64,000 bases of DNA, from positions 396,818-460,817 of the forward strand of contig JAQULK010000001.1 of the NCBI GenBank assembly GCA_028718635.1, given 5' to 3'. This DNA is from Minisyncoccota bacterium (lineage in GTDB: Bacteria; Patescibacteriota; Minisyncoccia; Phycocordibacterales; UBA9973). Below the pieces are notes generated by a model. That model had not been told where the DNA came from. It worked only from the letters and a program-made list of their open reading frames with translations, and did no database searches. Position numbers and translations under genes: made by a program. Below are positions 21,786 through 63,720 of the stretch, one piece after another (the first letter of the stretch is position 1; each line of letters opens with the position of its first letter).

Positions 21786-21866
21786 TTTCGGTACGGATTT
21801 TTTGAAGCTTAAAAAATCCTGAAGTTTTCGGCTCGACAGCCTCAAAACCCCTTCAAAAGTTTATTT
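21786..21866 (+). repeat. Family C ~80-nt REP-like intergenic element, copy 1
   Basis: aactttttcggtacgg-GGATTTTTT-gaagctta-AAAAAATCC-tgaagtt-GC hairpin (ggct-cgac-agcc)-aaaaccccttcaaaagtt. Confidence 0.7.
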
Positions 21867-22867
21867 TAAATTTTTACAGTTTTATAGCTTTCTGGTATAT
21901 TTTCTAGATATTCTTCCAATTTTTCTTTTGTCAAAAGTCCTCTTTGCGCTCCGACTTCTTGGACCACGGACATAGAGTTTATGCCTGCCCAAGCCAAAGC
22001 TTCAGGCAAAGTTTTACCCAATATGGTTGCAATTACAATAGTGGAGGAAAAAGCATCTCCAGCGCCGGTGCGTTCATGGGGAGGTTTTGGATCAGGGTAA
22101 GGGGGCATAAATAAGTACTCTGCGCCGTCAAAAGTATAAGCGCCTTTTGGTCCGTCTGTAATTATCACAGTCTTTGGCCCGAGAGAATAAATCTTTTGGA
22201 GTAATTCTTTGATTTCTCCGCTATCTAACCCTAATATTTTTTTTGCTTCCTCAACATTGCAGAAAAACATATCAGTATGTTTATAGAGTCTTTGCAATTT
22301 TTCTTTTCCCAATTTTATTTCAAATTTTCCCGGCTCGAAAGCGAATTTTGTTTCTGGATGGGCATCTAAATAGTCGGCTATAGTGTAATGAAAAGGAAAG
22401 GCTGTTTCATTTACAGAACTGAAATAAATCCATTTTGGTTCGTCAAATTCTGGCAAGCTGTATGGATAAATTTCATGTTTTATTAAAATAGTTCTTTCAG
22501 CTTCATACCATAGAACAAAATGTTGATTAGTTTTTATTCCAGAATTTATTTTTATCAACTCGGTGCCGACCCCGTCCTTTTTAAGTGAATCTAAACAATC
22601 TATTCCTGCTTTATCATCCCCAACGTTGGAAACGAGCTTTGTCTCAAGTCCTAGCCGAGCAGCTGCCACCGCAACATTGCCTGCATTACCTACGGCGGGG
22701 AGAGCAAAAACATCTTCGTATGGAACTTTGTCCGCAAAAGGCAGGCATATCTCGTAATCTTTATTGTCAGGAGTCCCCTTGATGCTTGCGTCTTTTAATT
22801 TAATAAAAACATCTATCACAATATCCCCAATTGCTAAAAAATCAATTTTTTTATTGTCTTCACTCAT
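21866..22867 (-). CDS. PfkB-family carbohydrate kinase (ribokinase/fructokinase-like)
   Basis: N-terminal GG motif 'GDIVIDV' and C-terminal 'TGAGDAFSS'. Confidence 0.8.
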   Translation of the reverse strand: MSEDNKKIDFLAIGDIVIDVFIKLKDASIKGTPDNKDYEICLPFADKVPYEDVFALPAVGNAGNVAVAAARLGLETKLVSNVGDDKAGIDCLDSLKKDGVGTELIKINSGIKTNQHFVLWYEAERTILIKHEIYPYSLPEFDEPKWIYFSSVNETAFPFHYTIADYLDAHPETKFAFEPGKFEIKLGKEKLQRLYKHTDMFFCNVEEAKKILGLDSGEIKELLQKIYSLGPKTVIITDGPKGAYTFDGAEYLFMPPYPDPKPPHERTGAGDAFSSTIVIATILGKTLPEALAWAGINSMSVVQEVGAQRGLLTKEKLEEYLENIPESYKTVKI

Positions 22868-22881
22868 GGTATCATTCTACC

Positions 22882-24207
22882 ATGTTTAAAAAACTGATTC
22901 TAGTGGGGTTTGTTTTTTTATTTTTGGGATTTAAGTTGGTATTAGCTACAGAAGTGACACCGATTATTTCTTATACTTTAAATGGAACTTCTTCCAATAT
23001 TGTGGCAAATCCTGTTGTTAATCCTGTAGAAATTAAGTTCTCTGCTAATGAAAACATACCTAATTGGGTTTCAATAAAAATTGAAAAAAACGATGATTCT
23101 AGTATTTATAAAACATTTTCTCCTAATTCTTGTGACGGCACCGCTTATTGTACTGAAACATGGAATGGTGCCATATCTCCTAAAAATAAAGTCTTAGTTG
23201 ATGGTATATATAATATTTCTGTTCATGTGAAGAAAGATGTTGCAAGCCCAGTTACTTACGATTTCATATTGACTTCGCCTTATACAATAACAGTTGATAG
23301 CTCTTTATCTACTCCGTTACCTGTCTCTGATTCACCTAGTAATGATTCAAATTCTTCAACCAACACTTCAACAACTCAGCCAGAACCCAAGCCAAAAGTG
23401 ATTGAAAATCCGACCATGAAAGTAAAAATTTTAGCCAATGCTTTAGCTTTTACCGGGCAACCGCTTGAAATAAAAACTAATGTCTTAGGGTTTTCCAATG
23501 AAAATGTTGTTCTCGGCAGGGCTTCGTGGAATTTTGGCGACGGCGGTTCGTTGGAACAAATAAATAATTTTGAAAAATTTTCTCATACTTATTATTATTC
23601 AGGCGAGTATGTTTTATTTTTGGAATACTACCAAAATAATTTTTCAAAAACCCCCGAAGCGACCAGCAAAATGGTGGTAAAAGTTCTTCCGACTTCTGTT
23701 TTTATTTCTAAAGTAGGGGATGCAAAAGATTTTTTTATTGAACTCTCAAACAATGCCAGCTCGGACATAGATATCTCAAATTGGGTCATTAATGCAAATG
23801 GAAAAATTTTTATTTTTCCCAAAAACAGCGTGATTATGTCTAAAAAACAAGTAATTGTTCCTGGTAAAATAACCGGATTTACCCAGAACGATCAAAACAA
23901 CTTAAAACTTTATTCTGGAACTGGTGAATTGATATCTGATTATAATGCGGAAATACAACCCCCTAAATCTCCCCATCAAAATATGACGAGTAAAGTTTCT
24001 ACAGCGGTTCAACCGCTGGGAAATTCAGGAACTATCAATTTACAAAGCAATGTTATGAATAGTAGCAGTGAAGACAATTACTCTGTGCCCATCATTCCCA
24101 TCGCTTCTTTTGTTTTTATTGGAGCTAGCGCGGGCGCAGTTTATTTTATTCGCCGGAAAAAAGCCGTTGTCCAAGAAGGGGATGATTTTGATATTTTAGA
24201 TGAATAA
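22882..24207 (+). CDS. Membrane-anchored surface protein with a lamin-tail-like domain
   Basis: Signal peptide MFKKLILVGFVFLFLGF, Ser/Thr/Pro linker, LTD-like 'DFFIELSNNASSDIDISNWVINANGKIFIFP', C-terminal TM plus 'RRKK'. Confidence 0.6.
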   Translation: MFKKLILVGFVFLFLGFKLVLATEVTPIISYTLNGTSSNIVANPVVNPVEIKFSANENIPNWVSIKIEKNDDSSIYKTFSPNSCDGTAYCTETWNGAISPKNKVLVDGIYNISVHVKKDVASPVTYDFILTSPYTITVDSSLSTPLPVSDSPSNDSNSSTNTSTTQPEPKPKVIENPTMKVKILANALAFTGQPLEIKTNVLGFSNENVVLGRASWNFGDGGSLEQINNFEKFSHTYYYSGEYVLFLEYYQNNFSKTPEATSKMVVKVLPTSVFISKVGDAKDFFIELSNNASSDIDISNWVINANGKIFIFPKNSVIMSKKQVIVPGKITGFTQNDQNNLKLYSGTGELISDYNAEIQPPKSPHQNMTSKVSTAVQPLGNSGTINLQSNVMNSSSEDNYSVPIIPIASFVFIGASAGAVYFIRRKKAVVQEGDDFDILDE

Positions 24208-24223
24208 AAGTTACGAAACATAA

Positions 24224-24306
24224 ACTTTTCTTTGGTACGGATTTTTCGAAGCTTGAAAAATCCTGAAGTTCTCGCGCCGTCGCGCTCGAAACCCCTTCGA
24301 AAAGTT
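24224..24306 (+). repeat. Family C element, copy 2, itself nested inside a 14-bp outer inverted repeat (gttacgaaacataa / ttatgtttcgtaac)
   Basis: cttttctttggtacggatttttcgaagcttgaaaaatcctgaagttctcgcgccgtcgcgctcgaaaccccttcgaaaag. Confidence 0.7.
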
Positions 24307-24396
24307 ATGTTTCGTAACTCACGATTATAATGCCCTTTGAAATAAGGGTTTTTTCTGCTAGAATAAAAAATAGGGCAAAAATTGTCCTCTTTTTAT

Positions 24397-26166
24397 ATGG
24401 AAAAAGATTTTTCAAATTTAGATGTTGGGTTGGTGCTCAAATATTATTGGCAGGTAATTAAGAATTTTAAATTCTCCTTTTTTTGCGTTCTTGTCTCCAC
24501 AACACTTTTTTCTGCTCTCGATATCTATATACCGCTCCAATTTTTAAAACTTTGGGATATTCTTAATACCAATAATTTTGCCGTCGTTTCGACTGCTAAA
24601 TCGATTATTATTCTGATATTAATATTGGGACTAATTGGCTGGGTGCTTCGCAGGACTTCTGGATTTTTCCTATCATATTTCGAATCAGGAGTGATGGCCG
24701 GCCTCCGAGAACAGGCTTTTTCTTATATGATCGGTCATTCCCATTCTTTTTTTGCAAATAATTTTTCAGGTTCATTAACCAGGAAAATAAATAAATATGC
24801 TAATGCTTTTGAAAAATTAACAGACAGAATGGCTGCCGATGCTTTACCGCTTTTTGTCCGCAGTATCGGCGTATTCATTGCTGTTTATTCTTTGATTCCG
24901 AAATATGCATATATTTTAGGAATATTCTGTTTAGTTTTTTTATTAACTGCCTTTTTTTATATTCGATTTAAAATTAAATATGATGTGATCTCAGCTTTGG
25001 CTGACACCAGAACCACAGGAGTTTTTGCTGATGCCATTGGCAATCATTCCTCAATCCAGATTTTTACTGGTCATAAGTATGAGGAAAATCGAACAAGAAA
25101 AATAATTCAAAAACAACGGAAAGCGACAGTCTTTAATTGGTATTTATGGGAGGGACTTAATGCCATTCAAAGTTTTTATTCGGTCATCGTTCAATTTATT
25201 ATTTTTTGGGTAGCAATTAATGATTGGAGACTATCTCTCGTTACTTTACCCTTTATGGTATTACTTCAAAGTTATCTAGTTCGTTTGATTGATAGTTTAT
25301 GGAGTTTTGGCGGTATTGTGCGTACTTTTTATAACAGCTTTGCTGATGCTCAAGAAATGGCTATAGTTTTAGATTCGCCGTATGAAATAAGTGATAATGT
25401 AGAAAAAGTCGCGGAAAATATTAAAGGAGAAGTTGTTTTTAATAATGTTACTTACACATATAAAAATAATAAAAATAAAGTATTAGATAATTTTTCTTTA
25501 ACCATACCACCAGGACAAAAGATTGCATTGGTCGGTTCGTCTGGCGCCGGCAAGACGACCTTGGTTCGCTTATTGATGAGGTTGTTTAATATTCCTTCAG
25601 GGAAGATTACTATTGATGGAATTGATATCAGTAAAATTTCCCAAGAAAATCTTCGAGAGCAAATAGCTTTTGTTCCGCAAGACCCTGTTCTTTTTCATCG
25701 TACCTTGATGGAAAATATTCGTTATGGTAAAAGAAACGCCACAGACGAAGAAGTCATGAGAGCAGCCAAGCTCGCGCATTGTGATGAGTTTATTGATTCT
25801 TTGCCATTTCGCTATGAGACATACGTGGGAGAACGGGGAATAAAACTCTCGGGTGGGGAGCGTCAGAGGGTGGCTATCGCCCGCGCCATTATCAAAAATG
25901 CGCCGATTCTTATTTTAGATGAAGCTACTTCTTCGCTTGATTCCCATTCTGAATCTTTGATCCAAGATGCCCTTACTAAACTTATTGCCGGGAAAACTAC
26001 TATTGTTATCGCTCATCGACTTTCCACTATTAGGCAGATGGATAGAATAATCGTATTAGAAAAAGGAAAAATTGTCGAAGACGGAATCCACAGCGAACTG
26101 ATAAATAAAAAAGATGGATATTATAAAAAATTATGGGATCTTCAAGCGGGAGGATTTTTAGATTAA
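24397..26166 (+). CDS. ABC transporter, fused permease/ATPase (MsbA-like exporter)
   Basis: 6-TM N-terminus, Walker A 'GSSGAGKTT', signature 'LSGGERQRVAIARA', Walker B 'ILILDEATS'. I prefer the ATG at 24397 over the TTG at 24382. Confidence 0.85.
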   Translation: MEKDFSNLDVGLVLKYYWQVIKNFKFSFFCVLVSTTLFSALDIYIPLQFLKLWDILNTNNFAVVSTAKSIIILILILGLIGWVLRRTSGFFLSYFESGVMAGLREQAFSYMIGHSHSFFANNFSGSLTRKINKYANAFEKLTDRMAADALPLFVRSIGVFIAVYSLIPKYAYILGIFCLVFLLTAFFYIRFKIKYDVISALADTRTTGVFADAIGNHSSIQIFTGHKYEENRTRKIIQKQRKATVFNWYLWEGLNAIQSFYSVIVQFIIFWVAINDWRLSLVTLPFMVLLQSYLVRLIDSLWSFGGIVRTFYNSFADAQEMAIVLDSPYEISDNVEKVAENIKGEVVFNNVTYTYKNNKNKVLDNFSLTIPPGQKIALVGSSGAGKTTLVRLLMRLFNIPSGKITIDGIDISKISQENLREQIAFVPQDPVLFHRTLMENIRYGKRNATDEEVMRAAKLAHCDEFIDSLPFRYETYVGERGIKLSGGERQRVAIARAIIKNAPILILDEATSSLDSHSESLIQDALTKLIAGKTTIVIAHRLSTIRQMDRIIVLEKGKIVEDGIHSELINKKDGYYKKLWDLQAGGFLD

Positions 26167-26286
26167 TCCCGTTAGAAGCCGCGATCGCAATTTAAAAACA
26201 AACAAAAACATGAAATTAGAAATTATAAAAATTAATAATATTAAACATCAGATACGCGAGTTGATCGCGATCTGCTTCTAAACGGG
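26167..26286 (+). repeat. Family B ~120-nt stop-to-start intergenic element, copy 1, with a mini-ORF at 26210..26281
   Basis: Terminal inverted repeats tcccgttagaagccgcgatcgc / gcgatcgcgatctgcttctaaacggga. Starts 1 nt after the ABC-transporter TAA and ends at the lepA ATG. Encodes MKLEIIKINNIKHQIRELIAICF*. Confidence 0.7.
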
Positions 26287-28170
26287 ATGGATTTAAAACA
26301 CATTAGAAACTTTAGCATAATAGCGCACATTGACCACGGTAAAAGTACTTTAGCGGATAGAATGCTTGAAATTACGCATACAATAGAAACACGGAAAATG
26401 CGCAACCAGTTTTTAGACTCTATGGAACTGGAGCGCGAAAGAGGAATTACTATAAAAATGCAACCCGTTCGAATGGAATACACCCCTCCCCAAACCCCTC
26501 CCCAAAAGGGAGGGGCACCTTCTCTTTTGGAGAAGGCGGGGGAAGGGGTGTATATTTTAAATCTTATTGATACGCCCGGTCATATAGATTTTTCTTATGA
26601 AGTTTCTCGAGCATTAAAGGCGGTAGAGGGTTCTATTTTGCTTATTGACTCAACTCAAGGGGTGCAAGCGCAAACGCTTACCACTCTCGCTATGGCGCGA
26701 GAGGGAGGTCTTAAAATAATCCCAGTACTCTCTAAGATTGATTCGCCTTTATCCAGAGTTTCGGAGGTAAAAGATGAAGTAGTGGATCTTTTAAATTGCG
26801 ATCCGGATGAAATTTTATTAGTTTCTGGACGCACAGGAGAAGGAGTTGAAAATCTTCTTAAGGAAGTAATAAAACGAGTACCAGAACCAAAAGAAACCAT
26901 TTCGGACGTTGGACGTCTGGATTCCGGACGTCCAACGTCCGAAATCCTGCGCGCCTTAGTTTTTGATTTTAAATATTCAAATCATAGAGGGGTGATAGTT
27001 TTTGTGCGCGTCTTTGATGGAAAAGTCGCAAAGGGCGACAGTTTGGTTTTTGCAGTTTCTGGCGAGAAATTTACCGCTCTTGAAGTCGGAACTTTTTCTC
27101 CAGAAGAAACCCCGCGCGATTTTCTTTCTCCTGGGGACACGGGTTATATCGTCACTGGCATAAAGAAGCCCGGCATAGCATCCGTTGGAGATACTATTAC
27201 GATGTTTAAAAATCCTTTGCCTGCATTTGAGGGATATATGCAACCATTGCCCGTAGTGTGGGCGAGCGTTTTTCCAGAAGATGCGGATGATTTTGCAGAA
27301 TTAAAACTTGCTTTAGGAAAATTAAAACTTTCTGATTCAGCGTTTTCCTACGAAGAAGAATCTTCTGGGTCCTTGGGCAGGGGATTCAGATGCGGATTCT
27401 TAGGAATGCTTCATTTGGAAATTATCACTGAGAGACTAAAACGCGAATTTAATTTGGAATTAGTCATCACTACGCCTTCCATCACTTATGAAGTTTTGTT
27501 AAAAAATGGAAAAAGAGAAAAAGTTTATTCCCCGTTTCATTTTCCGGACGATGGCCTAATCGAGAAGGTTTTCGAGCCTTGGGTAAGTTTGAAGATTATT
27601 ACTCCAGTCCAATATGTCGGCAGTGTTATCCAACTTCTTTTTGACCATGAGGGAGAAGTAGGTGATACAGAGAATTTTGGAGACAATCGCTCTACTATCT
27701 CCGTGAAAATGCCCTTACGAGAGCTTATGCGGAATTTTTTCGATGAATTAAAAAGTATTTCTTCTGGTTATGCTTCAATTTCTTATTCCATTGGGGAATT
27801 GCGGGAGGCAAATGTCACTAGGCTTGATCTACTAGTAGCAGACGAAGTGGTGCCAGCTTTTTCTCGGGTGGTGGCTAAAAAGAGAGCTGAAGTTGAAGCA
27901 GAAAATGCCGTCTTAAAATTAGATAATTTATTGCCGAGACAAATGTTTACTTTGAAAATTCAAGGCCGAGCGCTTGGACGGATTATTTCTTCCCGCACGA
28001 AATTCGGCATGAAAAAGGATGTGACTCAGCATATGTATGGAGGCGATATTACGCGAAAAATGAAACTTCGAGAGAAACAAAAGAAAGGCAAAAAGAAGAT
28101 GAAGGAAAGGGGACGAGTGAACATTCCGCAAGATGTGTTTTTGAAAATGATGCGAACGGGGGAAAAGTAA
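26287..28170 (+). CDS. lepA: Elongation factor 4 (LepA) carrying two in-frame palindromic insertions
   Basis: 'IIAHIDHGKSTLADR' and 'DTPGHIDF' G-domain motifs. Extra segments 'TPPQTPPQKGGAPSLLEKAGEGV' and 'ISDVGRLDSGRPTSEI' relative to canonical LepA. Confidence 0.9.
   Translation: MDLKHIRNFSIIAHIDHGKSTLADRMLEITHTIETRKMRNQFLDSMELERERGITIKMQPVRMEYTPPQTPPQKGGAPSLLEKAGEGVYILNLIDTPGHIDFSYEVSRALKAVEGSILLIDSTQGVQAQTLTTLAMAREGGLKIIPVLSKIDSPLSRVSEVKDEVVDLLNCDPDEILLVSGRTGEGVENLLKEVIKRVPEPKETISDVGRLDSGRPTSEILRALVFDFKYSNHRGVIVFVRVFDGKVAKGDSLVFAVSGEKFTALEVGTFSPEETPRDFLSPGDTGYIVTGIKKPGIASVGDTITMFKNPLPAFEGYMQPLPVVWASVFPEDADDFAELKLALGKLKLSDSAFSYEEESSGSLGRGFRCGFLGMLHLEIITERLKREFNLELVITTPSITYEVLLKNGKREKVYSPFHFPDDGLIEKVFEPWVSLKIITPVQYVGSVIQLLFDHEGEVGDTENFGDNRSTISVKMPLRELMRNFFDELKSISSGYASISYSIGELREANVTRLDLLVADEVVPAFSRVVAKKRAEVEAENAVLKLDNLLPRQMFTLKIQGRALGRIISSRTKFGMKKDVTQHMYGGDITRKMKLREKQKKGKKKMKERGRVNIPQDVFLKMMRTGEK
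26480..26551 (+). repeat. Family E GC-rich palindromic element inserted in frame in lepA (72 nt, 24 codons)
   Basis: acacccctccccaaacccctcccc-aaaa-gggaggggcaccttctc-tttt-ggagaaggcgggggaaggggtgt. Nested inverted repeats. Confidence 0.65.
26899..26945 (+). repeat. Family F 19-bp-arm perfect palindrome inserted in frame in lepA
   Basis: atttcggacgttggacgtc-tggattccg-gacgtccaacgtccgaaat. Confidence 0.65.
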
Positions 28171-28172
28171 TG

Positions 28173-28300
28173 AAATGCGAAACTCTTTCTTGGCACAAGT
28201 TTTCTGTCAGCACACATAAAAATCTGCTGATTTTTTGCTATGCTCGGCTACCCGCCTGCGCAATGCTTCCATAAAACTATGCCTGCGACGAGTTTCGCAT
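28173..28300 (+). repeat. Family D element, second (rearranged) copy, intergenic after lepA
   Basis: Shares ~60 nt with the tsaD in-frame insert (43672..43800): ctgctgatttttt-gctatgctcggct..cctgcgcaatgcttcc and cacaagttttctg. Confidence 0.55.
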
Positions 28301-28442
28301 TTAAAATTACCTACCTAAAAATCGGCGAGTAGAGCAGGATCATGCTGATGATAATCAGTATACTTACTACTGCCCAAACTATTTGTATTTTCTTTTGATG
28401 TTTTTTATTAAAAAGCATACAATAAGGATAGCATATTATGAG

Positions 28443-28940: not shown

Positions 28941-28962
28941 TATCTATGATATAATATAGATT

Positions 28963-43207: not shown

Positions 43208-44422
43208 TTAGAGCCTTAAATCACCAATTGCTTTTATGCTATCTAATTTAGGAACTTTCTTTTTATTTTTTATATAATTTAAGTACCCAGCAATCCCGAT
43301 CATTATGGAATTATCTCCAATAAGTCCTTTTGGTGGAAACATAAACTTGATTTTACTTTTAGTAATTTTCTTTATTTCATCTTGCAAATATTTATTTGCT
43401 GCAACCCCTCCGGCAACAATGAGAGTTTTTATATCGTATTTTTCTAAAGCTTTTTTTGTTTTATAGGTTAGACATTCGATGGCGGCGTTCTCAAATTCCA
43501 AAGCAATTTGTTTTTTTGTATTCTGATCGATTTTCTCAATTCCGCCTAGGTCTCTTATTAAATATAAAACTGCCGTTTTAAGACCAGAAAAAGAAAAATT
43601 AAAATCTTTTGTATGCAGCATCGGGCGGGGGAGGGAGAAAGAAAGAGAATCAATCTTTATAGTGTCGCGCGAGAGAGAGAAGCGAGAAACTTGTGCGGAC
43701 TCAGCACGCATAATTTTCTGCTGAAAATTTGCTATGCTCGGCTCGACAGCCTGCGCAATGCTTCCCTCGCACAAGTTTCTCGCTTCTCCAGCTAATTTTG
43801 AAATTTGTGGCCCTCCAGGGTAAGGCAGATCAAGCATTCTGGCTACTTTATCAAAAGCTTCTCCGACTGCATCATCAAGCGTTTTGCCAATGATTTCATA
43901 ATCCATCCACTTTTTCGAAAGTACTAATTGCGTATGTCCGCCAGACACTAGAAGCGTTAGGATTGGTGTTTCCACTTTTTTTATTTTAAAAGTTCCTTTT
44001 TCTTTTCCAAAAACGGAAAGAACATGTCCTTCCATATGATTGACCGGTATCAAGGGCACTTTCCATTTTTGGGCGAGTTCTTTGGCAAAGGCGATTCCGG
44101 TCCAAAGAGACATCTCAAGACCTGGACCATAAGTTATCATTATCGCGTCTATTGGCTTTTTCTTTTTATCTAATTTGGCTTGTTTAAGACAAAGCTCAAG
44201 TAAAATAGGTAGATTCTTGATATGTTCTTGTTTAGCGAGTTTTGGGAAAACACCTCCAAAAGGAATGTGAATATTTATTTGAGAATTTGAATTATTCGCC
44301 AACACTTTAAAGGAAGCATTTGTAATGCCTCCTTTCTTGCCCGCCTTCGGCGGGTGAACTTCCATAATACTTATTGCTGTATCATCGCAAGATGTTTCGA
44401 TGCTTAAGATTTTCATTGTCAT
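43208..44422 (-). CDS. tsaD: tRNA t6A37 threonylcarbamoyladenosine synthase TsaD (Kae1/Gcp), with a ~43-aa in-frame insertion
   Basis: 'HMEGH' metal site, 'GGPQISKLA' and 'DFNFSFSGLKTAV'. Extra ~43 aa between GGP and PRPM. Confidence 0.85.
   Translation of the reverse strand: MTMKILSIETSCDDTAISIMEVHPPKAGKKGGITNASFKVLANNSNSQINIHIPFGGVFPKLAKQEHIKNLPILLELCLKQAKLDKKKKPIDAIMITYGPGLEMSLWTGIAFAKELAQKWKVPLIPVNHMEGHVLSVFGKEKGTFKIKKVETPILTLLVSGGHTQLVLSKKWMDYEIIGKTLDDAVGEAFDKVARMLDLPYPGGPQISKLAGEARNLCEGSIAQAVEPSIANFQQKIMRAESAQVSRFSLSRDTIKIDSLSFSLPRPMLHTKDFNFSFSGLKTAVLYLIRDLGGIEKIDQNTKKQIALEFENAAIECLTYKTKKALEKYDIKTLIVAGGVAANKYLQDEIKKITKSKIKFMFPPKGLIGDNSIMIGIAGYLNYIKNKKKVPKLDSIKAIGDLRL
43672..43800. repeat. 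Family D palindromic element inserted in frame in tsaD (19-bp TIRs gaagcgagaaacttgtgcg / cgcacaagtttctcgcttc)
   Basis: TIRs seen directly. The core shares gctatgctcggctcgacagcctgcgcaatgcttcc with 28173..28300. Confidence 0.65.
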
Positions 44423-45511: not shown

Positions 45512-45553
45512 ACTTGTGCAACATCCGATGTTGCACAAGTTTATTTTGCTTTT
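45512..45553. terminator. Intrinsic terminator (13-bp stem acttgtgcaacat/atgttgcacaagt) after tRNA-Ser, overlapping the trxB stop
   Basis: Hairpin followed by ttattttgctttt. Confidence 0.6.
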
Positions 45554-46545
45554 AGAGTAATATAGATATCTTCTATGGCGCGGACGGCATCGCCGGCTGC
45601 GATGAGGTTTTGATGATAGTGAATATTAGTGCAGTCCCCAGCAGCCCAAATTCCAAGGACTTCTGTTTTTTGGGACCAAGCATCTATTTTTACTTTACCT
45701 ATTTCATCTAAAGGAACCAAATCTTTTACAAAGTCAGTATTTGGAATCTGTCCGATTTCTACGAAAATGCCTGCTACTTTTAATTCTTTTTGTTCTCCGG
45801 AAATTTTATCCTTATAAATTATTCCTTCTACAAATTTATCGCCCTGTATTTCTAAAATATCAGCATTTTTTATTATTTTTATTTTTGGATTTTTTAAAAT
45901 TTTATCAATTGTAGTTTGGTCAGCGCGAAAAGAGTCGCTTCTGATTATAAGCGTGACAGATTTACAATATGCTAAAAGCTGGGAGGCTGATCCGAAAGCG
46001 GCATTACCTCCGCCGATCACAGCCACATCCATGTCTGCAAAAAGTGGACCATCACAACTGGCGCAGTAGGTAAGGCCTTTGTGCTCTAAAGTATCTGCAT
46101 TCTTAGCGGTGAGTTTTCTGTGTCCACTGCCGCTCCCTATTAAAATTGTTTTAGTTTCAAATTCCTTTCCAGATTCTGTTTTTACAGAAAAAAAGGAAGC
46201 AAGGCTTCCTTCAGCTCTTCCTTCAGCTGAAGGAAGCCTTGCTTCCTTTTTTTTAATTGCTGTTACTTTTTCGCCTTCTTTTACTTCTAGACTTTCTCCC
46301 ACATTTTCTAAAACATGTTTTTTAAAATTTTCTGCAAGTTGTGCTCCGGAGATAGCAGGGGATCCTATCCAATTTTTAATTTCTTCTGAAGCTATGCTCT
46401 GCCCACCCCACTCTGAAATAACAAAAAGTGTCTTCAGTTTCTTTCGAGCTGCGTAAACAGCCGCTGCGCTCCCAGCCGGCCCACCTCCAATAATTATTAG
46501 ATCGTAAATCATTTGCATATTATACATCATGAATAGGAATTTCAA
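45541..46545 (-). CDS. trxB: Thioredoxin-disulfide reductase with an in-frame palindromic insertion
   Basis: 'IIGGGPAGSAAAVYAAR' FAD site, 'CASCDG' redox centre. Extra 'KKEARLPSAEGRAEGSLASFF' segment. Confidence 0.85.
   Translation of the reverse strand: MKFLFMMYNMQMIYDLIIIGGGPAGSAAAVYAARKKLKTLFVISEWGGQSIASEEIKNWIGSPAISGAQLAENFKKHVLENVGESLEVKEGEKVTAIKKKEARLPSAEGRAEGSLASFFSVKTESGKEFETKTILIGSGSGHRKLTAKNADTLEHKGLTYCASCDGPLFADMDVAVIGGGNAAFGSASQLLAYCKSVTLIIRSDSFRADQTTIDKILKNPKIKIIKNADILEIQGDKFVEGIIYKDKISGEQKELKVAGIFVEIGQIPNTDFVKDLVPLDEIGKVKIDAWSQKTEVLGIWAAGDCTNIHYHQNLIAAGDAVRAIEDIYITLKAK
46187..46253. repeat. Family G 21-bp-arm perfect palindrome flanked by A7/T9, inserted in frame in trxB
   Basis: aaaaaaa-ggaagcaaggcttccttcagc-tcttccttca-gctgaaggaagccttgcttcc-ttttttttt. 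Confidence 0.7.
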
Positions 46546-46550
46546 AATAA

Positions 46551-46633
46551 ACTTTTGCAGGGGTTTTCCGAGCGACGGCGAGGAAACTTCAGGAATTTTT
46601 AAGCTTAAAAAATTCCGTACCGGAAAAAGTTTA
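46551..46633 (-). repeat. Family C element, copy 4 (minus orientation), between ftsZ and trxB
   Basis: Reverse complement reads aactttttccggtacgg-GGAATTTTTT-aagctt-AAAAATTCC-tgaagtt...aaaacccctgcaaaagtt. Confidence 0.7.
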
Positions 46634-46645
46634 ATTTTGGAATTC

Positions 46646-47851
46646 CTATTTCTTGTTGCGTCTCAAGAATGCTGGAACAGCGCTCCAGTCATCGCCATCA
46701 TCTTCTATGATATCTTCTTTGGTTTCTTTTTTTTCTATCTTTTTTATAAAATCATTATTGTGGATATTTGTACTGTGGGTATTGTGCAGATTGCTTTGGA
46801 TAGTATTGTGAATTTCTTTTTTTACTACTGCTGGAGTTTCATCTTTTAAAAGCTGGCCTGCTGTTGTTCCACTAAAAAGATTCTTGCGAGGCATATCGGC
46901 AGGGAACGAAGTGGCGATAACAGTGACTTTGATTTCTCCTTTTTTTAATTTTTCATCTCGGATTGTTCCAAAGATTACTTTAGCATCTTTATCGATTGAC
47001 TCTGTGATAATTTTTGCAGCTTCCTGAATTTCATTGATAGTCAAATCATCACCGCCAGAAATAGCAAACAATACTCCCTTGGCGCCGTGGATGGAGACCT
47101 CAAGAAGAGGTGAATTGATAGCGGCCAAAGCTGCTTTTTCAGCACGTTTCTCGCCAGAAGATGCGCCGATACCCATAAGTGCCGAGCCGGCGTTTGACAT
47201 TACAGCTCTAATGTCTGCAAAATCAACATTGATAATACCTGGAGTGGTAATCAAATCGGAAATTCCTTCTACGGCTTGGCGCAAGATATCATCGCATTTT
47301 GCAAAAGCGTCTTTGAAGTTAGTGTTTTTATCAGTCAATTGAAGTAATTTGTCGTTCGGAATAATAATGATCGCATCCACTTCTTTAGCCAAATCCTCAA
47401 TTCCTTTTTCCGCTATTTTCATACGGTGATTTCCTTCAAAAAAGAAAGGCTTGGTAGTGACTGCTACGGTCAAGATTCCTTGTTCTCTCGCTGCGCGAGC
47501 GACGATAGGAGCAGCTCCTGTGCCGGTGCCTCCACCCATTCCACAAGCAAGAAAAATCATGTCCGCCCCTTTGATGACGTCTTGGATTTCAGATTTTGTT
47601 TCTTCGGCTGCCTTTTTCCCAACTTCTGGATCCATGCCTGCGCCAAGACCCTTGGTAAGATTTTTTCCGATATGAATTTTTTTCTCAGCGAGGGAGTGGT
47701 GCAAGTCTTGAGTGTCAGTATTCATACAGATAAAAGAGACACCTTTGACTTTAGAATTTATCATATGGTTCACCGCGTTCTTGCCTGATCCACCGATTCC
47801 GATGACCATAATGCGAGCAAAACTTTGTATTTCTTGGTTTATTTTTGGCAT
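46646..47851 (-). CDS. ftsZ: Cell division GTPase FtsZ
   Basis: 'GGGTGTGAAPIVA' tubulin signature. Confidence 0.95.
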   Translation of the reverse strand: MPKINQEIQSFARIMVIGIGGSGKNAVNHMINSKVKGVSFICMNTDTQDLHHSLAEKKIHIGKNLTKGLGAGMDPEVGKKAAEETKSEIQDVIKGADMIFLACGMGGGTGTGAAPIVARAAREQGILTVAVTTKPFFFEGNHRMKIAEKGIEDLAKEVDAIIIIPNDKLLQLTDKNTNFKDAFAKCDDILRQAVEGISDLITTPGIINVDFADIRAVMSNAGSALMGIGASSGEKRAEKAALAAINSPLLEVSIHGAKGVLFAISGGDDLTINEIQEAAKIITESIDKDAKVIFGTIRDEKLKKGEIKVTVIATSFPADMPRKNLFSGTTAGQLLKDETPAVVKKEIHNTIQSNLHNTHSTNIHNNDFIKKIEKKETKEDIIEDDGDDWSAVPAFLRRNKK

Positions 47852-57420: not shown

Positions 57421-57672
57421 TCAGATCTCCCCGATAAATTCTTTTATTTTATTCTCGATTTTTTCTATTTTCTCAACCAAATGAGGGTGTTTGTGTAAAT
57501 ATCTTTTTAAAATAGTGTTGGTTTGGGGAAAATAAAAAGACAGTAGTAAAAATCCTATTATCAAAAAAAGAATTCCTTGCAAAAGAGGTACTACTAAACC
57601 AAGCAATCCAAGTAGAATAAAAAATATTCCAAGACCCAAGATTATTATTTTTTTGATTTTCTTTTTCATCAT
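57421..57672 (-). CDS. DUF454 (YbaN-like) small inner-membrane protein
   Basis: 'ILGLGIFFILLGLLGLVVPLLQGILFLIIGFLLLSFYFP' has the typical YbaN architecture. Confidence 0.6.
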   Translation of the reverse strand: MMKKKIKKIIILGLGIFFILLGLLGLVVPLLQGILFLIIGFLLLSFYFPQTNTILKRYLHKHPHLVEKIEKIENKIKEFIGEI

Positions 57673-57725
57673 AAATTTAATATAACATGAAAATATGATA
57701 TTATCATTAAAACTTATTATTCAAA

Positions 57726-58154: not shown

Positions 58155-58163
58155 AAGATTTTT

Positions 58164-58742: not shown

Positions 58743-58856
58743 AATTAACTATAATGATGACACTAAAGCCAAAACTTTTCAACTGGCAAAATTTTCAATC
58801 AAAAAAAAAGTGTTTTAATAACAAATTAATGATATTATGCTTAAATAAATAATAAG

Positions 58857-59342
58857 ATGATTAAAAAAATTATATTAGCGGGAGGATGTTTCTGGGGATT
58901 GCAGGATCTGATACGAAAACAAGCAGGTGTCGTGAAAACGCGTGTGGGATATACCGGTGGAAAAGTAGGAAATCCAACTTATCGAAATCATGAGGGTCAT
59001 GCGGAAGCAGTAGAGATAGAATATGACACAGAAAAAACTTCTTATAAAAAATTGCTGGATTTTTTCTTTCAAATTCACAATCCTACGACCTTAAACCAGC
59101 AAGGGAATGACAGAGGGACTTCATATCGCTCCGCGATATTTTATAGCAATGAAGAGGAGAAAAAAGAAGCAGAAAATTTTATAGATATCGTAAATAAATC
59201 AAAACGCTGGAAAGATCCTGTGGTTACAACTCTTGAACCATTGGGTGATTTTTACGAAGCGGAGGAATATCATCAAGATTATTTACAAAAGAACCCTGGC
59301 GGATATTCTTGCCATGCCATTTATTTTGATAGTTATCTGTGA
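58857..59342 (+). CDS. msrA: Peptide methionine sulfoxide reductase MsrA
   Basis: 'LAGGCFWG' active site and '[11 protein letters not shown]'. Confidence 0.9.
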
Positions 59343-59361
59343 CGTATGGTAGAATCACTTT

Positions 59362-59901
59362 ATGAAACTTTTAATACTTTTTGGTCCTCCAGCGGTGGGG
59401 AAAACTACAGTAGGGAAGATAATAGAATCAAAATCAGATTTTAAGCTTTTTCATAACCACATGGCTTTGGATGGCGTTATGCATCTATTTGGAGTTGGAA
59501 CTTCTTCTGAAAATAAACTGAGCAGGATCATTCGAGAGAATATAATAAAAGAAGCTGCAGAAAATAAAATTAATCTTATCTTCACTTATGTTTGGGATTT
59601 TGGACAAGAGAGGGGAAAGAATAATATAGATTTTTACAAAAATATTTATGAATCTGCCGGAGGTAAAGTAATCTTTGTGGAATTAGTTGCGCCGCTTTCA
59701 ATTCGAGCAGAACGCGCAGATAATCCAATGCGTGGTGTAGAAAAAAAGTATGCGCCAAATAAAGAACACGTACTTGCTCTAGAAAATACTCTTAATTTTA
59801 CCAGCCCAACTCCTTTTTTCTATCCCAATTACACAAAAATCGACACAGAAAACAAAACACCAGAAGCTATCGCGGAAGAAATTCTACCTTTGCTTTTATA
59901 G
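59362..59901 (+). CDS. P-loop NTPase / small-molecule kinase-like protein
   Basis: Walker A 'GPPAVGKTT'. 179 aa. Adenylate-kinase / chloramphenicol-phosphotransferase-like size. Confidence 0.5.
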   Translation: MKLLILFGPPAVGKTTVGKIIESKSDFKLFHNHMALDGVMHLFGVGTSSENKLSRIIRENIIKEAAENKINLIFTYVWDFGQERGKNNIDFYKNIYESAGGKVIFVELVAPLSIRAERADNPMRGVEKKYAPNKEHVLALENTLNFTSPTPFFYPNYTKIDTENKTPEAIAEEILPLLL

Positions 59902-59914
59902 CATAAGGAATCTG

Positions 59915-59986
59915 TGACTCTACTGGGAATCGCACCCAGATTTGAAGCTTGAGAAGCTTCCGTCCTGACTATTAGACGATAGAGCC
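59915..59986 (-). tRNA. tRNA-Glu (CUC)
   Basis: Acceptor ggctcta/tagagtc, anticodon stem gaagc/gcttc with loop ttCTCaa, T-arm ctggg-tgcgatt-cccag. Confidence 0.75.
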
Positions 59987-60129
59987 TAAAGAAACTTACT
60001 TGGGAAAATATAGCATTTTTCATCAAAAAACTAAAGAAAATTAAAACTAAAGGCTAAATAATAATTCCGCTAGGAAAGACCTAGCGGTAGAGTAATAACA
60101 GTTTTTACCGCTCATGTTATAATCATCAT

Positions 60130-60597
60130 ATGAAAAAATTTATATCGGTGATAATTATTATCATTATTTTAGTAATTATGGCTTTGGTCTGGCAGATTAA
60201 TGTTAAAAAAGAAACGACCATGGAGCCGAGCCTGGTAAGTAATATGGATACAGGAAACGCTGAACAGAAAAAAGATCTTATTCGCGTATTTTCACCCCAG
60301 CCAAACGATGTGATAAAAAATTCAATCGACATAAAAGGCGAGGCGAGAGGGAATTGGTTTTTTGAAGCTTCTTTTCCTATTAAATTAATTAACACCGAAG
60401 GCAAGGAAGTTCCGCTTTCTCAAGGTTATATTATGACTTCAGCAAATTGGATGACGACCGATTTTGTTCCTTTTGAACAAGTTGTCACTTTCCATACACA
60501 AAAAGCCGGGAAGGGGAAACTAATCCTAATGAAAGACAATCCATCTGGACTTCCTCAAAATGCTGATGAACTCGTCATTCCTATTTCATTTGAGTAA
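60130..60597 (+). CDS. Gmad2 immunoglobulin-like domain protein (GerM-related), N-terminal TM
   Basis: 'IRVFSPQPNDVIKNSIDIKGEARGNWFFEASFPIKLIN' matches the Gmad2 pattern. Confidence 0.55.
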   Translation: MKKFISVIIIIIILVIMALVWQINVKKETTMEPSLVSNMDTGNAEQKKDLIRVFSPQPNDVIKNSIDIKGEARGNWFFEASFPIKLINTEGKEVPLSQGYIMTSANWMTTDFVPFEQVVTFHTQKAGKGKLILMKDNPSGLPQNADELVIPISFE

Positions 60598-60603
60598 TAA
60601 AAT

Positions 60604-61659
60604 TTAGTCTCCTGATTTTGGCTTCTCCACTTCAAGAAGCGCTAGCTCGGGTGAAGCGCCGGCTATGCGAAGCACATCTTTGTCTATCTTTTTTAGTTCT
60701 TTATTTGAAGCGTTGTAGTGGTTCACCACTGTGCCCAGGGCATTGCCGAGCTTGTTGTGATATTCATCATAAGATTTTAAATGTTTGCCGAGGTCTTCTA
60801 CTTTTTTAATTATTTCTTTAGCGGACTCTTCTATTTGCAGAGCCTTGAGTCCTTGCAGGACAGTTTGCAGATAAGCAAGAAATGAAGTGGGGGAGGTGAT
60901 AATGACTTTGTACTTTCCAGCCGCGCGTTGGATTAGGTTCTCATTATCGTCACTTGCGCCGACCTTATTGGTGATCAAATCATAGTAAATGGCTTCGTGG
61001 GGGATAAACATAAATGCAAAGTCAGTAGTGCCTTTGGTGGGCTGGATGTATTTTGATGTTTCAGTAATGCGATTTTTTAAATCATTTACAAAAATTGTTT
61101 CTAGTCTTTTTTTCTCGGTGCCGTCATGTTCCTCGGCCATTTTGTTGTAATTTTCTAAGGAGAATTTTGAATCGATAGGAATGATTTTATCTTTCACAAA
61201 AACAACTGCGTCCACGATGGTTCCATCGGGGAAAGCATACTGCATCTGATAGCTTCCAGGAGGCAATACATTTTTCAAAACTGTTTCTAAATAATATTCG
61301 CCTAAAATTCCGCGTTGTTTTGGATTTTTTAAGATATTTTCCAGGCTTTGGAGCTGGTCAGCGAAGGAGATGACTTGCTTGTTTGTCTCGTCCAGACGGG
61401 TGAGTCTCTCTGTGACGTCCCGAATTATTTTATTTGATTCAGAAGAATGGAACTTCAAACTTTCATTGACCTGTTTGTGGGACTCGCCGATCTTGCTATC
61501 TACAGTTCTAGAAAGTTCATTTATTTGCGTCAAGATAAGATTCAATCCGATGTCGTCTTTTCCATTTATGTTCTTTTTTCTATTATTAAGGTAAAGCAAG
61601 AAAAAAATAATAGTTATACAGACAATTATTATAATTATTAAAAAAATATTTTCTTCCAT
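60604..61659 (-). CDS. rmuC: DNA recombination protein RmuC
   Basis: N-terminal TM plus long coiled coil, C-terminal RmuC nuclease-like region 'FAFMFIPHEAIYYDL'. Confidence 0.75.
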   Translation of the reverse strand: MEENIFLIIIIIVCITIIFFLLYLNNRKKNINGKDDIGLNLILTQINELSRTVDSKIGESHKQVNESLKFHSSESNKIIRDVTERLTRLDETNKQVISFADQLQSLENILKNPKQRGILGEYYLETVLKNVLPPGSYQMQYAFPDGTIVDAVVFVKDKIIPIDSKFSLENYNKMAEEHDGTEKKRLETIFVNDLKNRITETSKYIQPTKGTTDFAFMFIPHEAIYYDLITNKVGASDDNENLIQRAAGKYKVIITSPTSFLAYLQTVLQGLKALQIEESAKEIIKKVEDLGKHLKSYDEYHNKLGNALGTVVNHYNASNKELKKIDKDVLRIAGASPELALLEVEKPKSGD

Positions 61660-61689
61660 ATTAGTAATTTTAGCATTTTTAATTTATAA

Positions 61690-61823
61690 ACAAAAACTCT
61701 GGCCTTATGCCAGAGTTGCGTAGTCTTCTAAAGACTAAAGTTTTTGTAGTGGGTACGTCTTTGAAAGGTCTTTGGTTAAAAGTAGGATCCAACCATTCCT
61801 AAACAGTTGGCAGAAAACCTCAA
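61690..61823 (-). ncRNA. Candidate small RNA (~135 nt) with its own -10 box and intrinsic terminator. Identity unknown
   Basis: Minus-strand TATAAT at 61835..61830. Internal hairpins ccaac..gttgg and agtctt-taga-agact. Terminator ctctggc-ataag-gccagag plus TTTTTGTTT at 61715..61688. No ORF. Confidence 0.35.
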
Positions 61824-61966
61824 ACTCATATTATAAGTATGTAATTACTAATCCCCATACAAGTGAGTTGCCTCACACATTCGCAGTCGTCAGCATAGCT
61901 GGCTTTACTTCAGGGCTATACGCCTGTACAACTACTATTGTAAAATAAGTATGTTTTTTTGTAAAG

Positions 61967-62671
61967 GTGGATAACTTAAATTATTTATATAACCAGTGTG
62001 TTATGATTGCATTTATGGATTTATTTGAATTTAAAGATAAACATTTTCAAGAGGCTTATTTATTTGATCCAAAAGAATACGGGAGAATTTTTTCTTTTGT
62101 AGATTTTGCTAACGTAAGGAATTGGGCGAAAGTTTTTTGGAAAAAAGAAAATAAAGAATATTTAAAAAAAGAAATTGATATAGAAAAAATTCATAAATTA
62201 ATTAATCATATTAAGGCAAGCAAAAAATATTTTTATTATGGGCATTATAAAGAGCATATAGATTTACCTGAGGAACATACTTTAAATTTGAAATATCGCC
62301 AATCAATATTTCGTATAGATAAAGCTAGAAAATGTGGTTTCAGAGTTCGTACTAAAGATATAAAAGAAATAAACAATTTTGATGAAGATGGTAAATTTTT
62401 AGGAAAAATAAATAAATGTAACTTTGATGTAGAAATGACAATGGACATAATACAACAAATGGAAAAATACGATACAATATTTCTTTGGTCTGGAGATAGT
62501 GATTTTCATACCCTTTTACAATATTTAAAATCAAAAAAGAAAAAAGCTATTGTTATTTGTGCTAGGGATTTTGTTAGCGAAGAACTTAAGATGAATTGTG
62601 ATAAATATATTCCAGCTGATTCTTTAAAAGATCATTTAGAGTATGTAAAAACAAACTCGCCCAAGCGGTAA
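61967..62671 (+). CDS. NYN-domain protein (second paralog)
   Basis: 'FVDFANV', 'NFDVEMTMDIIQ' and 'LWSGDSDFHTLLQYLK' acidic residues. Confidence 0.65.
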   Translation: MDNLNYLYNQCVMIAFMDLFEFKDKHFQEAYLFDPKEYGRIFSFVDFANVRNWAKVFWKKENKEYLKKEIDIEKIHKLINHIKASKKYFYYGHYKEHIDLPEEHTLNLKYRQSIFRIDKARKCGFRVRTKDIKEINNFDEDGKFLGKINKCNFDVEMTMDIIQQMEKYDTIFLWSGDSDFHTLLQYLKSKKKKAIVICARDFVSEELKMNCDKYIPADSLKDHLEYVKTNSPKR

Positions 62672-62783
62672 AGCTTGGGCGAGGCATAAATACAATCCTA
62701 ATATCCTATAGGCGAGGGTAATTTTCATTACAAGTTTAGTATAATATATTTGTTGTAAAAAAACAACAATATGTGGATAACTA

Positions 62784-63515
62784 TTATTTTTCTAAATAAT
62801 GCTTCAAAGTGTAAATCCAATCTTCGTCTATGCCGTCGCCGTTTAATTTTTGGTCTAAAAGCCATTGCAAATAGCCTCTATCTACTTTTATTACATCCTC
62901 AATTCTTTTACCATTATGTTTGCCGAATTTGAAAGTGTGCAAAAGGGAAGGATGCGAAGAAATTTCTATCATTTTATTTATAACTTCCTCTTCTGTAAGT
63001 TCTTTTTCTTTCTCTGTTAGCATCTTCGACATTTTATTTTTCAATCTTTCGAAAAGTTTTTCTAACACTAAAACATCCCCCATAGCATCGTGGGCAGTGG
63101 CTTCTACTTCGATATCCAACAAATAGCGCAAATATTGCAGAGTGTACCGGTCAATTTTTTCTTCTTTATCTAAATATCTGGCGAGCCTTAGAGTGCAGAT
63201 GAAATTTTTTGGTTCTATACTTTCTTTTTTAATTATTGCCAAATCGAAGGGGGCATTGTGGGCAACGACAACAGAATCTTTGTCTTCAAAAAGTTTTTTA
63301 ATTATTGCCTGATCAGTGCTTTCTTTAAAAGTAGGTTTATCAGCTACCATTTTATTGGTGATGTGGTGCACAGCTGAAGCCTCCGGAGGAATCTTTATTT
63401 CAGGCTTATAGAGGCCTGTAAAACTTTCGTCTTTGCTTTTATAGGCGATTTGAACCAAAAAATCCTTTTCTGTATTGCCTGTGGTTTCTGTATCAAAAAA
63501 TATCAACTTAGACAT
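62784..63515 (-). CDS. DEDDh 3'-5' exonuclease (ExoX-like) with a C-terminal DUF3820-like domain
   Basis: Exo I 'FFDTETTG', Exo II 'VAHNAPFDLAII', Exo III 'HDAMGDVLVLEKLF'. C-terminal 'FKFGKHNGKRIEDV...DRGYLQWLL'. Confidence 0.75.
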   Translation of the reverse strand: MSKLIFFDTETTGNTEKDFLVQIAYKSKDESFTGLYKPEIKIPPEASAVHHITNKMVADKPTFKESTDQAIIKKLFEDKDSVVVAHNAPFDLAIIKKESIEPKNFICTLRLARYLDKEEKIDRYTLQYLRYLLDIEVEATAHDAMGDVLVLEKLFERLKNKMSKMLTEKEKELTEEEVINKMIEISSHPSLLHTFKFGKHNGKRIEDVIKVDRGYLQWLLDQKLNGDGIDEDWIYTLKHYLEK

Positions 63516-63637
63516 CCCATTAAAAATTTTAATTAATAATCTATATCATTATAACATGTTTTTTGAATTTCTAACGGGACAGGTAGTGCTATTTTAGCAT
63601 ACTTCTGGTATGATTTATATAGATTTATAAAATATCA

Positions 63638-63720
63638 ATTTTTCTTCGGTACGGATTTTTTTCTGTTGAAAAAAATCCTGAAGTTCTCGCGCCGTCGCGC
63701 TCGAAACCCCTTCAAAAATT
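63638..63720 (+). repeat. Family C element, copy 3
   Basis: aatttttcttcggtacgg-GGATTTTTTT-ctgttg-AAAAAAATCC-tgaagttctcgcgccgtcgcgctcgaaaccccttcaaaaatt. Confidence 0.7.

Follow-up and report, generated by a model that had tools for sequence, protein, structure and literature searches.

Correia elements (NEMIS) of Neisseria are palindromic miniature inverted-repeat transposable elements (MITEs) of 100-155 bp with long terminal inverted repeats (TIRs), which lie between genes at gene ends, in either orientation, and are co-transcribed as hairpins. The ERIC/IRU sequences of enterobacteria and the RUP/BOX sequences of pneumococcus are transcribed, intergenic and modular imperfect palindromes (~100-130 nt) with internal insertions at fixed places, for which orientation-dependent effects on the mRNA have been proposed. 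Here we describe family C, a palindromic repeat with four copies in a 64,000-nt stretch of a Minisyncoccota genome (contig JAQULK010000001.1, positions 396,818 to 460,817; the whole stretch is called the window below). Family C is probably a non-autonomous transposable element, a MITE-like palindromic repeat of ~95-150 bp, of Paceibacteria/Parcubacteria-type bacteria of the candidate phyla radiation (CPR).

Family C resembles the Correia elements in size, in its long TIRs, in its location at gene ends in either orientation and in the combination of its end variants as aa', ab' and ba'. However, its sequence is unrelated, the phylum is different, its target-site duplications (TSDs) are 7-8 bp long where Correia elements have TA, conservation is highest in its interior three-way junction, and one pair of termini encloses several unrelated cores. 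With ERIC/IRU and RUP/BOX it shares the build of a modular intergenic imperfect palindrome with internal insertions, but those repeats are restricted to a genus or family, whereas family C spans several candidate orders (Nomura-, Yanofsky-, Kaiser-, Yonath- and Vogelbacteria) at 88-92% core identity. As with the Rickettsia palindromic elements (RPE), the palindrome can stand in frame within a protein gene (a peptidase M1 gene at locus L078), although this holds for only 1 of 135 copies, the rest being intergenic. Repetitive extragenic palindromes (REP/BIME, and REPINs with their RAYT), which are recognised as hairpins, are similarly abundant at the 3' ends of genes, with proposed roles in mRNA stability and termination, yet a REP unit of 20-40 nt with a GTAG head is missing from family C; its core is an asymmetric 62-nt junction and its arms are without a conserved REP unit. 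REPINs have a conserved stem and a variable loop, family C shows the reverse, and its long forms have TSDs. Bidirectional intrinsic terminators likewise combine a hairpin with flanking A- and T-tracts and are found at gene ends, above all where genes converge, but in family C the base of the stem is A/T-rich, the tip is the 62-nt junction and many copies would be read through in operons. Integron attC sites were considered and rejected, as the arm ends do not fit RYYYAAC/GTTRRRY and the copies lie scattered among tkt, ftsZ, trxB and lepA-type genes. Family C is a member of none of the Correia, ERIC, RUP/BOX, RPE and REP/BIME families, from which it differs in sequence, TSD, phylum and the architecture of a conserved interior. 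A search of Rfam 15 at gathering threshold returned only tRNAs in the window and no match to family C, and no publication on it was found in the literature on structured RNA, MITE or REP sequences of CPR/Parcubacteria/Patescibacteria. The best-supported reading is that family C is an undescribed small mobile element and represents a new family, or rather superfamily, within the known class of MITE-like palindromic repeats.

Four copies of a three-way-junction hairpin

A spaced pattern (GGTACGG, 15-35 nt, then CCTGAAGTT) has exactly four matches in the window (21790, 24234, 46585 on the minus strand and 63648), where the chance expectation is 0, and a covariance model run without filters returned the same four places at 99-118 bits, with a runner-up match of 18.7 bits. 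An earlier note on this stretch had proposed four repeats at these places, and they are real. The motif order it had given can be read as described in every copy, that is AACTTTT, yCGGTAC, an A/T hairpin (GGA-Tn ... An-TCC), TGAAGTT, a G/C hairpin, AAACCCCTTC and AAAAGTT, and so can the four variants of the A/T hairpin (P2), namely GGA-T6/A6-TCC, GGATTTTTC/GAAAAATCC, GGA-T7/A7-TCC and GGAATTTTT/AAAAATTCC. Its estimate of a unit of ~80 nt is too small, as the core of 62-63 nt is closed by inverted-repeat arms of 20-25 bp into a hairpin of 110-120 nt (Table 1). The fold z-scores of the four copies lie between -4.3 and -6.4.

The gene contexts agree with those noted earlier, three copies following a gene in its transcriptional orientation and the fourth preceding one. 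Copy 1 occupies the entire gap between the convergent tktC (transketolase C-terminal gene; stop codon 21772-21774) and a sugar kinase gene (stop codon 21866-21868). Copy 2 lies between the stop codon of a membrane protein gene (22831-24207) and a canonical terminator (Table 1), so that it is not the sole terminator-like hairpin at that gene end. Copy 3, on the minus strand, lies between ftsZ (stop codon 46646-46648, within the arm) and trxB (start 46512), and copy 4 precedes a GatB/YqeY-like gene (start 63741) in the intergenic region between divergent genes.

Table 1. Family C copies, their parts and related hairpins; positions refer to the window unless a locus (L number) is given.
Feature	Position	Strand	Description
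Copy 1, whole hairpin	21765..21875	+	arms 21765-21785 and 21855-21875
Copy 1, core (62 nt)	21790..21851	+	GGTAC junction, P2, TGAAG junction, P3, CCCC
Copy 1, P2	21795-21819	+	GGA-T6, loop GAAGCTT, A6-TCC
Copy 1, P3	21825-21847	+	TTTT-C-GGCT cgac AGCC-TC-AAAA
Copy 2, whole hairpin	24209..24319	+	arms GTTACGAAACAT / ATGTTTCGTAAC, like long-form termini
Copy 2, core	24234..24295	+	pattern and covariance model
Canonical intrinsic terminator hairpin directly 3' of copy 2	24332..24349	+	GCCCTT tgaaat AAGGGT plus T-run
Copy 3, whole hairpin	46532..46650	-	arms contain the 8-mer GGAATTCC / GAAATTCC
Copy 3, core	46560..46621	-	pattern and covariance model
Copy 4, whole hairpin	63623..63733	+	palindromic 8-mer TTTATAAA on either side
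Copy 4, core (63 nt)	63648..63710	+	P2 with one extra pair and another loop, CTGTTG
Family B, first copy	28173-28302		long-hairpin frame and terminus type as in long-form family C
Family B, second copy	43677-43788		long-hairpin frame and terminus type as in long-form family C
Family D or G/C-rich hairpin, L107	525-665		
Family D or G/C-rich hairpin, L059	5575-5715		
Family D or G/C-rich hairpin, L029	2705-2828		
Family D or G/C-rich hairpin, L109	2205-2372		
Family D or G/C-rich hairpin, L082	3210-3385		

A scan of species-representative genomes, which required 25 fixed core bases, found the same core in at least 120 stretches, with 68 assemblies among the matches listed, all of them Patescibacteria. 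The record labels among these matches comprise Nomurabacteria, Paceibacterota, Yanofsky-, Kaiser-, Yonath- and Vogelbacteria, Minisyncoccia and sets of metagenome-assembled genomes labelled 'Saccharibacteria', and one assembly, MFTH01, carries at least nine family C loci. The core had 0 matches in viral contigs, and BLAST against phage and plasmid records gave no family C match. In total 135 copies were extracted, 131 of which were aligned (alignment A2), and the work on their neighbourhoods covers 142 loci and ~1 Mb.

The core folds as a three-way junction of two hairpins, P2 and P3, with the inverted-repeat arms as the closing stem. P2 (GGA-T6/A6-TCC) has the loop GAAGCTT, which is >90% conserved though it lies outside the search pattern. 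The outer part of P3 varies as TTC/GAA, TTT/AAA, TTTGC/GCAAA, TTGGC/GCCAA and others; it is followed by a 2x2 internal loop, CTCG opposite CTCG in all cases, which is able to slide along the helix, by an inner stem with compensated variants (GCGC, GGCT/AGCC, GCCC/GGGC, GTGT/ACAC, ACGC/GCGT and more) and by a CGTC or CGAC tetraloop. The junction strands GGTAC, TGAAG(TT) and AAACC are invariant. Over the 131 aligned copies, 92.7% of the cells are paired compared to 81.4% in shuffles (the observed value was reached by 0 of 500), 420 cells carry double changes compared to 166, and the covariation score is 0.297 compared to 0.106 in shuffles and at most 0.104 with the partners slid. The compensatory stem changes suspected from four copies are thus borne out, with P2, P3 and the closing stem all covarying strongly, and the covariation of P2 and P3 within the core stands, since the palindromic targets described below cannot account for it.

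As proof of selection on an RNA, the same changes fall short. Mismatches in the arms are G.T in 97 cases and A.C in 91, with no excess of G.U over A.C, so that wobble pairs are uninformative as a test for a transcribed strand. The GGTACGG strand, which would usually be the one transcribed with the gene, folds worse than its complement in 122 of the 135 copies, and in 135 of 135 when the core is taken alone, because the 2x2 loop is U.C/C.U on this strand and tandem G.A/A.G on the complement. A three-way junction with conserved strands, in a superficially hammerhead-like order (GUA.., CUGAAG.., GAAAC), could suggest a small self-cleaving ribozyme or an independent multi-copy small RNA gene, but we regard this as very improbable. 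Column 82 of the alignment, which would correspond to G12, holds G, A or C and covaries with column 63, U stands in place of A9, and no Rfam hammerhead match appeared on 21700-24400 even at E<=10, where the best sub-threshold matches of any kind over copies 1 and 2 on either strand were at chance level (E>1); moreover, no promoter/terminator pairs frame the copies, which abut coding regions. The string CUGACGAG on the opposite strand occurs only in the GGCT variant of P3 and is a coincidence, and resemblances to 5S rRNA and tRNA were weighed from the sequence and dropped.

Filled and empty sites, termini and target duplications

A metagenome scan with the kinase protein identified close relatives (85-90% amino acid identity in the kinase, 89% in tktC), none of which contains a family C element within the ~9 kb examined. 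In L122 (kinase 85%, tktC 89%) the site of copy 1 is empty and the two stop codons overlap in the palindrome GGAAAATTTAAATTTTTC, where the window reads AAAAATTTAAA(ATAGAAC..core..GTTTAT)TTTAAATTTTT. The site of copy 2 is empty in both L122 and L121, with the stop codon leading directly to the terminator (AATAAAG followed by CTTTGAAAT...); in L123 one arm and the outer frame are kept and the core is lost, a short direct repeat (TAAC) marking the deletion, and L139 carries a different perfect palindrome there. The empty copy 2 target in the relatives is centred on AAAG^CTTT / AAGCTT. Among the loci of the species representatives, flank-anchored comparisons found 47 pairs in which both sites are filled and about as many in which one is empty (about half of the comparisons), for example L002/L091 and L115/L034. 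Growth of the palindrome by copying of one flank was ruled out for L002, as its arms are missing from the empty site in L091.

The long form of the element, which has an additional module and ends in ..TGAATTACGAAAC / GTTTCGTAATTCA.., shows the clearest marks of transposition. Six near-identical copies of ~150 nt in MFTH01 each have their own 7-8 bp direct repeat (TTACTTA, TGTAAAAT, TTGTATA, the ambiguous TGATAAA, ATCATGA and TATGGAA), and unique direct repeats of 7-8 bp flank the long forms in L010, L018, L040, L100, L116, L120, L059 and L107. The assembly JBAZVG01 likewise carries recent copies. Symmetric direct repeats of at least 7 bp are found at 23% of copies compared to 8% of controls (p=3e-7). 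The long-form TIRs, (C/T)nnTGAATTACGAAACTC.. / ..GAGTTTCGTAATTCAnnn, are conserved across genomes, with two end variants (ACTTTG.. and ATCRTG..) that combine as described above, and both termini and TSD length recur around other cores, namely those of family B, family D and a G/C-rich family. The ends may bear a faint resemblance to those of IS4/IS10-type elements. Short-form arms read AAAATAT(C/A)AACTTTT / AAAAGTTATATTTT. The TSD candidates in the window are all palindromic or degenerate: TTTATAAA at copy 4, TTTAAA at copy 1 (backed by the empty site in L122), the degenerate AATAAAG at copy 2 and GGAATTCC/GAAATTCC at copy 3.

The 8-mers just outside the short-form arms are palindromes (TTTTAAAA, TTTATAAA at copy 4, TTTCGAAA, TTTGCAAA, TCTAGA, and TTTAAA at copy 1). 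As a palindromic target or duplication is self-complementary, it lengthens the hairpin by locus-specific pairs, and outside the core a copy has a median of 24 Watson-Crick pairs, roughly the sum of an arm of ~15 bp and a flank of 8 bp. Much of the locus-specific 'compensatory' outer stem is therefore plausibly the palindromic target or its duplication, with direct evidence at copy 1 only. The window (TTTAAA) and L086 (TCTAGA) seem to differ by a double compensatory change, yet the orientation of the core is opposite in the two, and the difference is best read as two independent insertions in a hot spot of overlapping convergent stop codons. At shared sites 13 of the 47 pairs are opposite in orientation (28%), where independent insertions at 3:1 would give ~37% discordant. 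For the flipped orthologues (L086, L061), inversion of the core in situ through recombination of the arms is less likely given the empty sites and the differing palindromic flanks (TTTAAA/TCTAGA), and independent insertions at hot spots fit better.

Insertion is also seen in less usual places. A G/C palindrome is nested in the P2 loop of a family C copy at GAAGC^TT (L040, 6264-6381), a hairpin of ~60 nt lies within the P3 of another (L107, 2370-2585), and at L078 (2626-2731) a family C copy stands in frame and antisense in an 862-aa peptidase M1 open reading frame (ORF), between the Peptidase_M1 domain (aa 225-442) and the ERAP1_C domain (aa 532-843). Family C is thus a non-coding multi-copy repeat of <300 bp with TIRs, a fixed TSD length in the long forms, and filled and empty sites, as is typical of MITEs. 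The earlier view that the repeat is something 'rather than junk' is not upheld for an element that is gained and lost between close relatives and carries TIRs and target duplications of 7-8 bp.

Insertions at the centres of palindromes and in the hairpin loops of other elements would also be expected if family C acted as DNA, with a structure-specific recombinase, an HUH-type enzyme (as in REP/RAYT, the IS200/IS605 PATE elements or attC) or a nucleoid protein recognising the core in the form of a folded single strand or a cruciform, and with intrastrand template switching keeping the stems complementary. The equal frequency of G.T and A.C mismatches in the arms, the conserved 2x2 loop that becomes a stabilising tandem G.A on one strand, the internal position of the conserved part next to variable short-form ends, and the recurrence of TTAC at long-form junctions agree with such a mechanism. 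However, the clean 7-8 bp TSDs and conserved TIRs of the long forms indicate a DDE transposase, and to our knowledge HUH elements make no TSD. No Y1/HUH gene was seen beside the copies when 910 neighbouring ORFs were clustered, the copies are dispersed among housekeeping genes with no cassette arrays, and their orientation follows transcription (see below), all of which makes action at the DNA level improbable.

Gene ends, orientation and terminators

The core starts at a median of 26-28 nt past the upstream stop codon in either orientation, which means that the arms begin at or in the stop codon. Gaps that contain the element are co-directional in 71 cases, convergent in 32 and divergent in nine, compared to a background of 596/123/106 in the same loci (chi-square p=9e-4). 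Of the 71 co-directional copies, 54 have GGTACGG on the mRNA strand and 17 are antisense (p=1.3e-5), weighting by site gives 42.8 to 12.8 (p=7e-5), and the bias shows no significant dependence on the distance to the next gene. Copy 3 is oriented with the genes around it and not with a single replication strand. Orientation relative to genes is thus non-random, and together with the position behind stop codons and the enrichment in convergent gaps it favours the earlier note's proposal of a transcript-end or boundary element, a proposal that the mobile, MITE-like behaviour of the repeat qualifies.

A canonical terminator was detected in six of 31 convergent gaps with the element and in 29 of 59 without it (p=0.007). 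In L119 the element stands between A7T and AT7, the same tracts that in L009 flank the terminator AAAAAAATCCCCCgttGGGGGATTTTTTT. A-rich sequence flanks the element on its left and T-rich sequence on its right, the arms are A/T-rich, and 66 of 129 copies have a run of at least five T beyond position +10, while a terminator scan flags only a mini-hairpin of 4-5 bp in copy 3 (CCGgtaCGG plus T6). On this sequence evidence the element could plausibly serve as a terminator-like or 3'-end hairpin, but three observations argue against a terminator role. Copy 2 and several other copies adjoin a canonical terminator; most co-directional copies lie ~15-20 nt from the next start codon, too close for a promoter of that gene, and must be read through; and the arms are A/T-rich instead of G/C-rich.

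The same placement could be explained by a host-selected cis-acting RNA motif, a protein-bound three-way junction in 3'-untranslated or intercistronic regions that would act in termination, in processing or as a barrier to decay and would be multi-copy because many genes need it, its mobility being secondary or ancient. Invariant junction nucleotides and covarying stems over class-level diversity, the preference for the sense strand with copy 3 following its local gene direction, the fixed position just past stop codons, the depletion of canonical terminators where the element is present, the near absence of decayed copies, and the occurrence of different hairpin families in the same post-stop position in different genomes would all be accounted for. 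Nevertheless, we consider a host motif unlikely. The closest relatives are without the element at both tested sites, TSDs and identical recent copies indicate transposition, the stems have no excess of G.U over A.C, and the gene-sense strand, with its tandem U.C/C.U mismatches, folds worse in most copies (122 of 135); furthermore, a quarter of the co-directional copies are antisense, 28% of same-site pairs differ in orientation, and one copy lies within an ORF.

For family C as a MITE-like transposable element, the following sequence of events may be envisaged. The 62-nt core would fold into the three-way junction as single-stranded DNA or RNA, and a transposase acting in trans, most likely of the DDE type with staggered cuts of 7-8 bp, would carry the element to A/T-rich and often palindromic sequence immediately behind stop codons, where a palindromic target or its duplication would add locus-specific base pairs to the hairpin. 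The inserted copy would usually be co-transcribed with the upstream gene and take the place of a terminator hairpin between an A-tract and a T-tract, so that its most likely effect on the host would be that of a 3'-end or terminator-like hairpin, tolerated or used by the cell. A mobile palindromic element of this MITE-like kind, which settles where a hairpin is harmless or useful, behind stop codons and replacing or beside terminators, is the best-supported account.

Several findings weigh against this account. A plain MITE does not explain the 88-92% identity of the core across genomes with ~75% identity in the flanking genes, nor the invariant junction bases, part of this conservation being ascertainment since the search pattern fixed 25 core bases. 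Nor does it explain the near absence of decayed copies (four weak matches in ~1 Mb) or the 3:1 orientation bias. The ends and TSDs of the short forms, copies 1, 3 and 4 included, are ambiguous because their flanks are A/T palindromes, and the extension of copy 3 is an inverted repeat with no direct repeat. No autonomous element or transposase with family C termini was found in the 142 loci; pairs of termini kilobases apart, considered as a possible autonomous parent, were chance matches within ORFs or small unrelated hairpins. Clustering of the neighbouring ORFs returned housekeeping families only, with no transposase and no RAYT gene beside the copies, and a scan of viral contigs with the terminus gave 15 matches, all of them chance matches in coding sequence.

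The 62-nt junction might instead be a functional module with a dedicated protein partner, a reading that has some chance of being right although we do not favour it. Such a module could be (a) a CPR-specific RNA 3'-end or termination signal that spreads by MITE hitch-hiking and, if so, has replaced ordinary terminator hairpins at many genes, or (b) part of a transposition system that would read the folded internal core and not the ends of the element. Either version would explain the near-invariant junction bases in different candidate orders, the lack of decayed copies and the 3:1 orientation bias.

Related hairpins and the compact CPR genome

Family B, with two copies in the window (Table 1), has a three-way-junction core different from that of family C. 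Its A/T hairpin covaries (AAAAATC-tgct-GATTTTT compared to AATTTTC/GAAAATT), its G/C hairpin GCTCGGCTcgacAGCC has the CTCG..CGAC.. module in common with family C, and relatives are found at L044, L115, L116, L080, L081 and L099. Family D (core AGGTCCTCGG...CCAGACC) and the G/C-rich family have the termini TGAATTACGAAAC / GTTTCGTAATTCA with TSDs of 7-8 bp, or occupy the post-stop sites that family C uses elsewhere. In the window, a G/C-rich hairpin (CCTCACCCTTCGCCCTCTCCTGACAGGAGAGGGTTGGGGAGAGGTG) at 13718-13826 lies where L104 carries a family C copy. A distant variant (L119, 1232-1298; L036, 2507-2574) reuses the A/T hairpin and a CTCGCGCcgtcGCGCTC hairpin in another topology, in which GCACG...CGTGC encloses the first hairpin.

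Two palindromes were also observed within coding sequence. The trxB gene (45541-46512, minus strand) contains a perfect palindrome with 29-nt arms (46188-46253), in frame and encoding KKKEARLPSAEGRAEGSLASFFS, which a terminator scan also flagged as a bidirectional terminator and which, from its sequence, looks like an RPE-style in-frame palindromic insertion. In lepA (LepA/EF4, 26287-28170) a palindrome at 26899-26945 with 23-nt arms (ATTTCGGACGTTGGACGTCTGGA / TCCGGACGTCCAACGTCCGAAAT) is in frame and encodes ISDVGRLDSGRPTSEI, and an intergenic sequence in L067, TTTCGGACGTTGGACGTCCG, is similar to it. Mechanical ORF calls were seen to run upstream into antisense family C copies at several loci, among them L008 (651-1145), L034 (2751-3611) and L084 (3579-5003), giving peptides such as ..TSGLFKLQKIRTGKK.., so that the starts of adjacent genes are easily mis-annotated.

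The CPR/Patescibacteria have very small genomes that are usually described as poor in mobile DNA. Here a superfamily of structured MITEs fills ~6 intergenic regions in a 64-kb window, occurs in dozens of species and turns over between close relatives, which makes family C a marker for strain-level population genomics of uncultured lineages. For annotation it is a warning, both through ORF starts miscalled into the element and through in-frame insertions. It also offers a natural experiment in the tolerance of insertions by compact genomes, which place them in the positions proper to terminator hairpins. Its unusually conserved core, finally, presents a tangible candidate for an RNA or DNA structure that binds protein, in hosts whose RNA biology is almost unknown.

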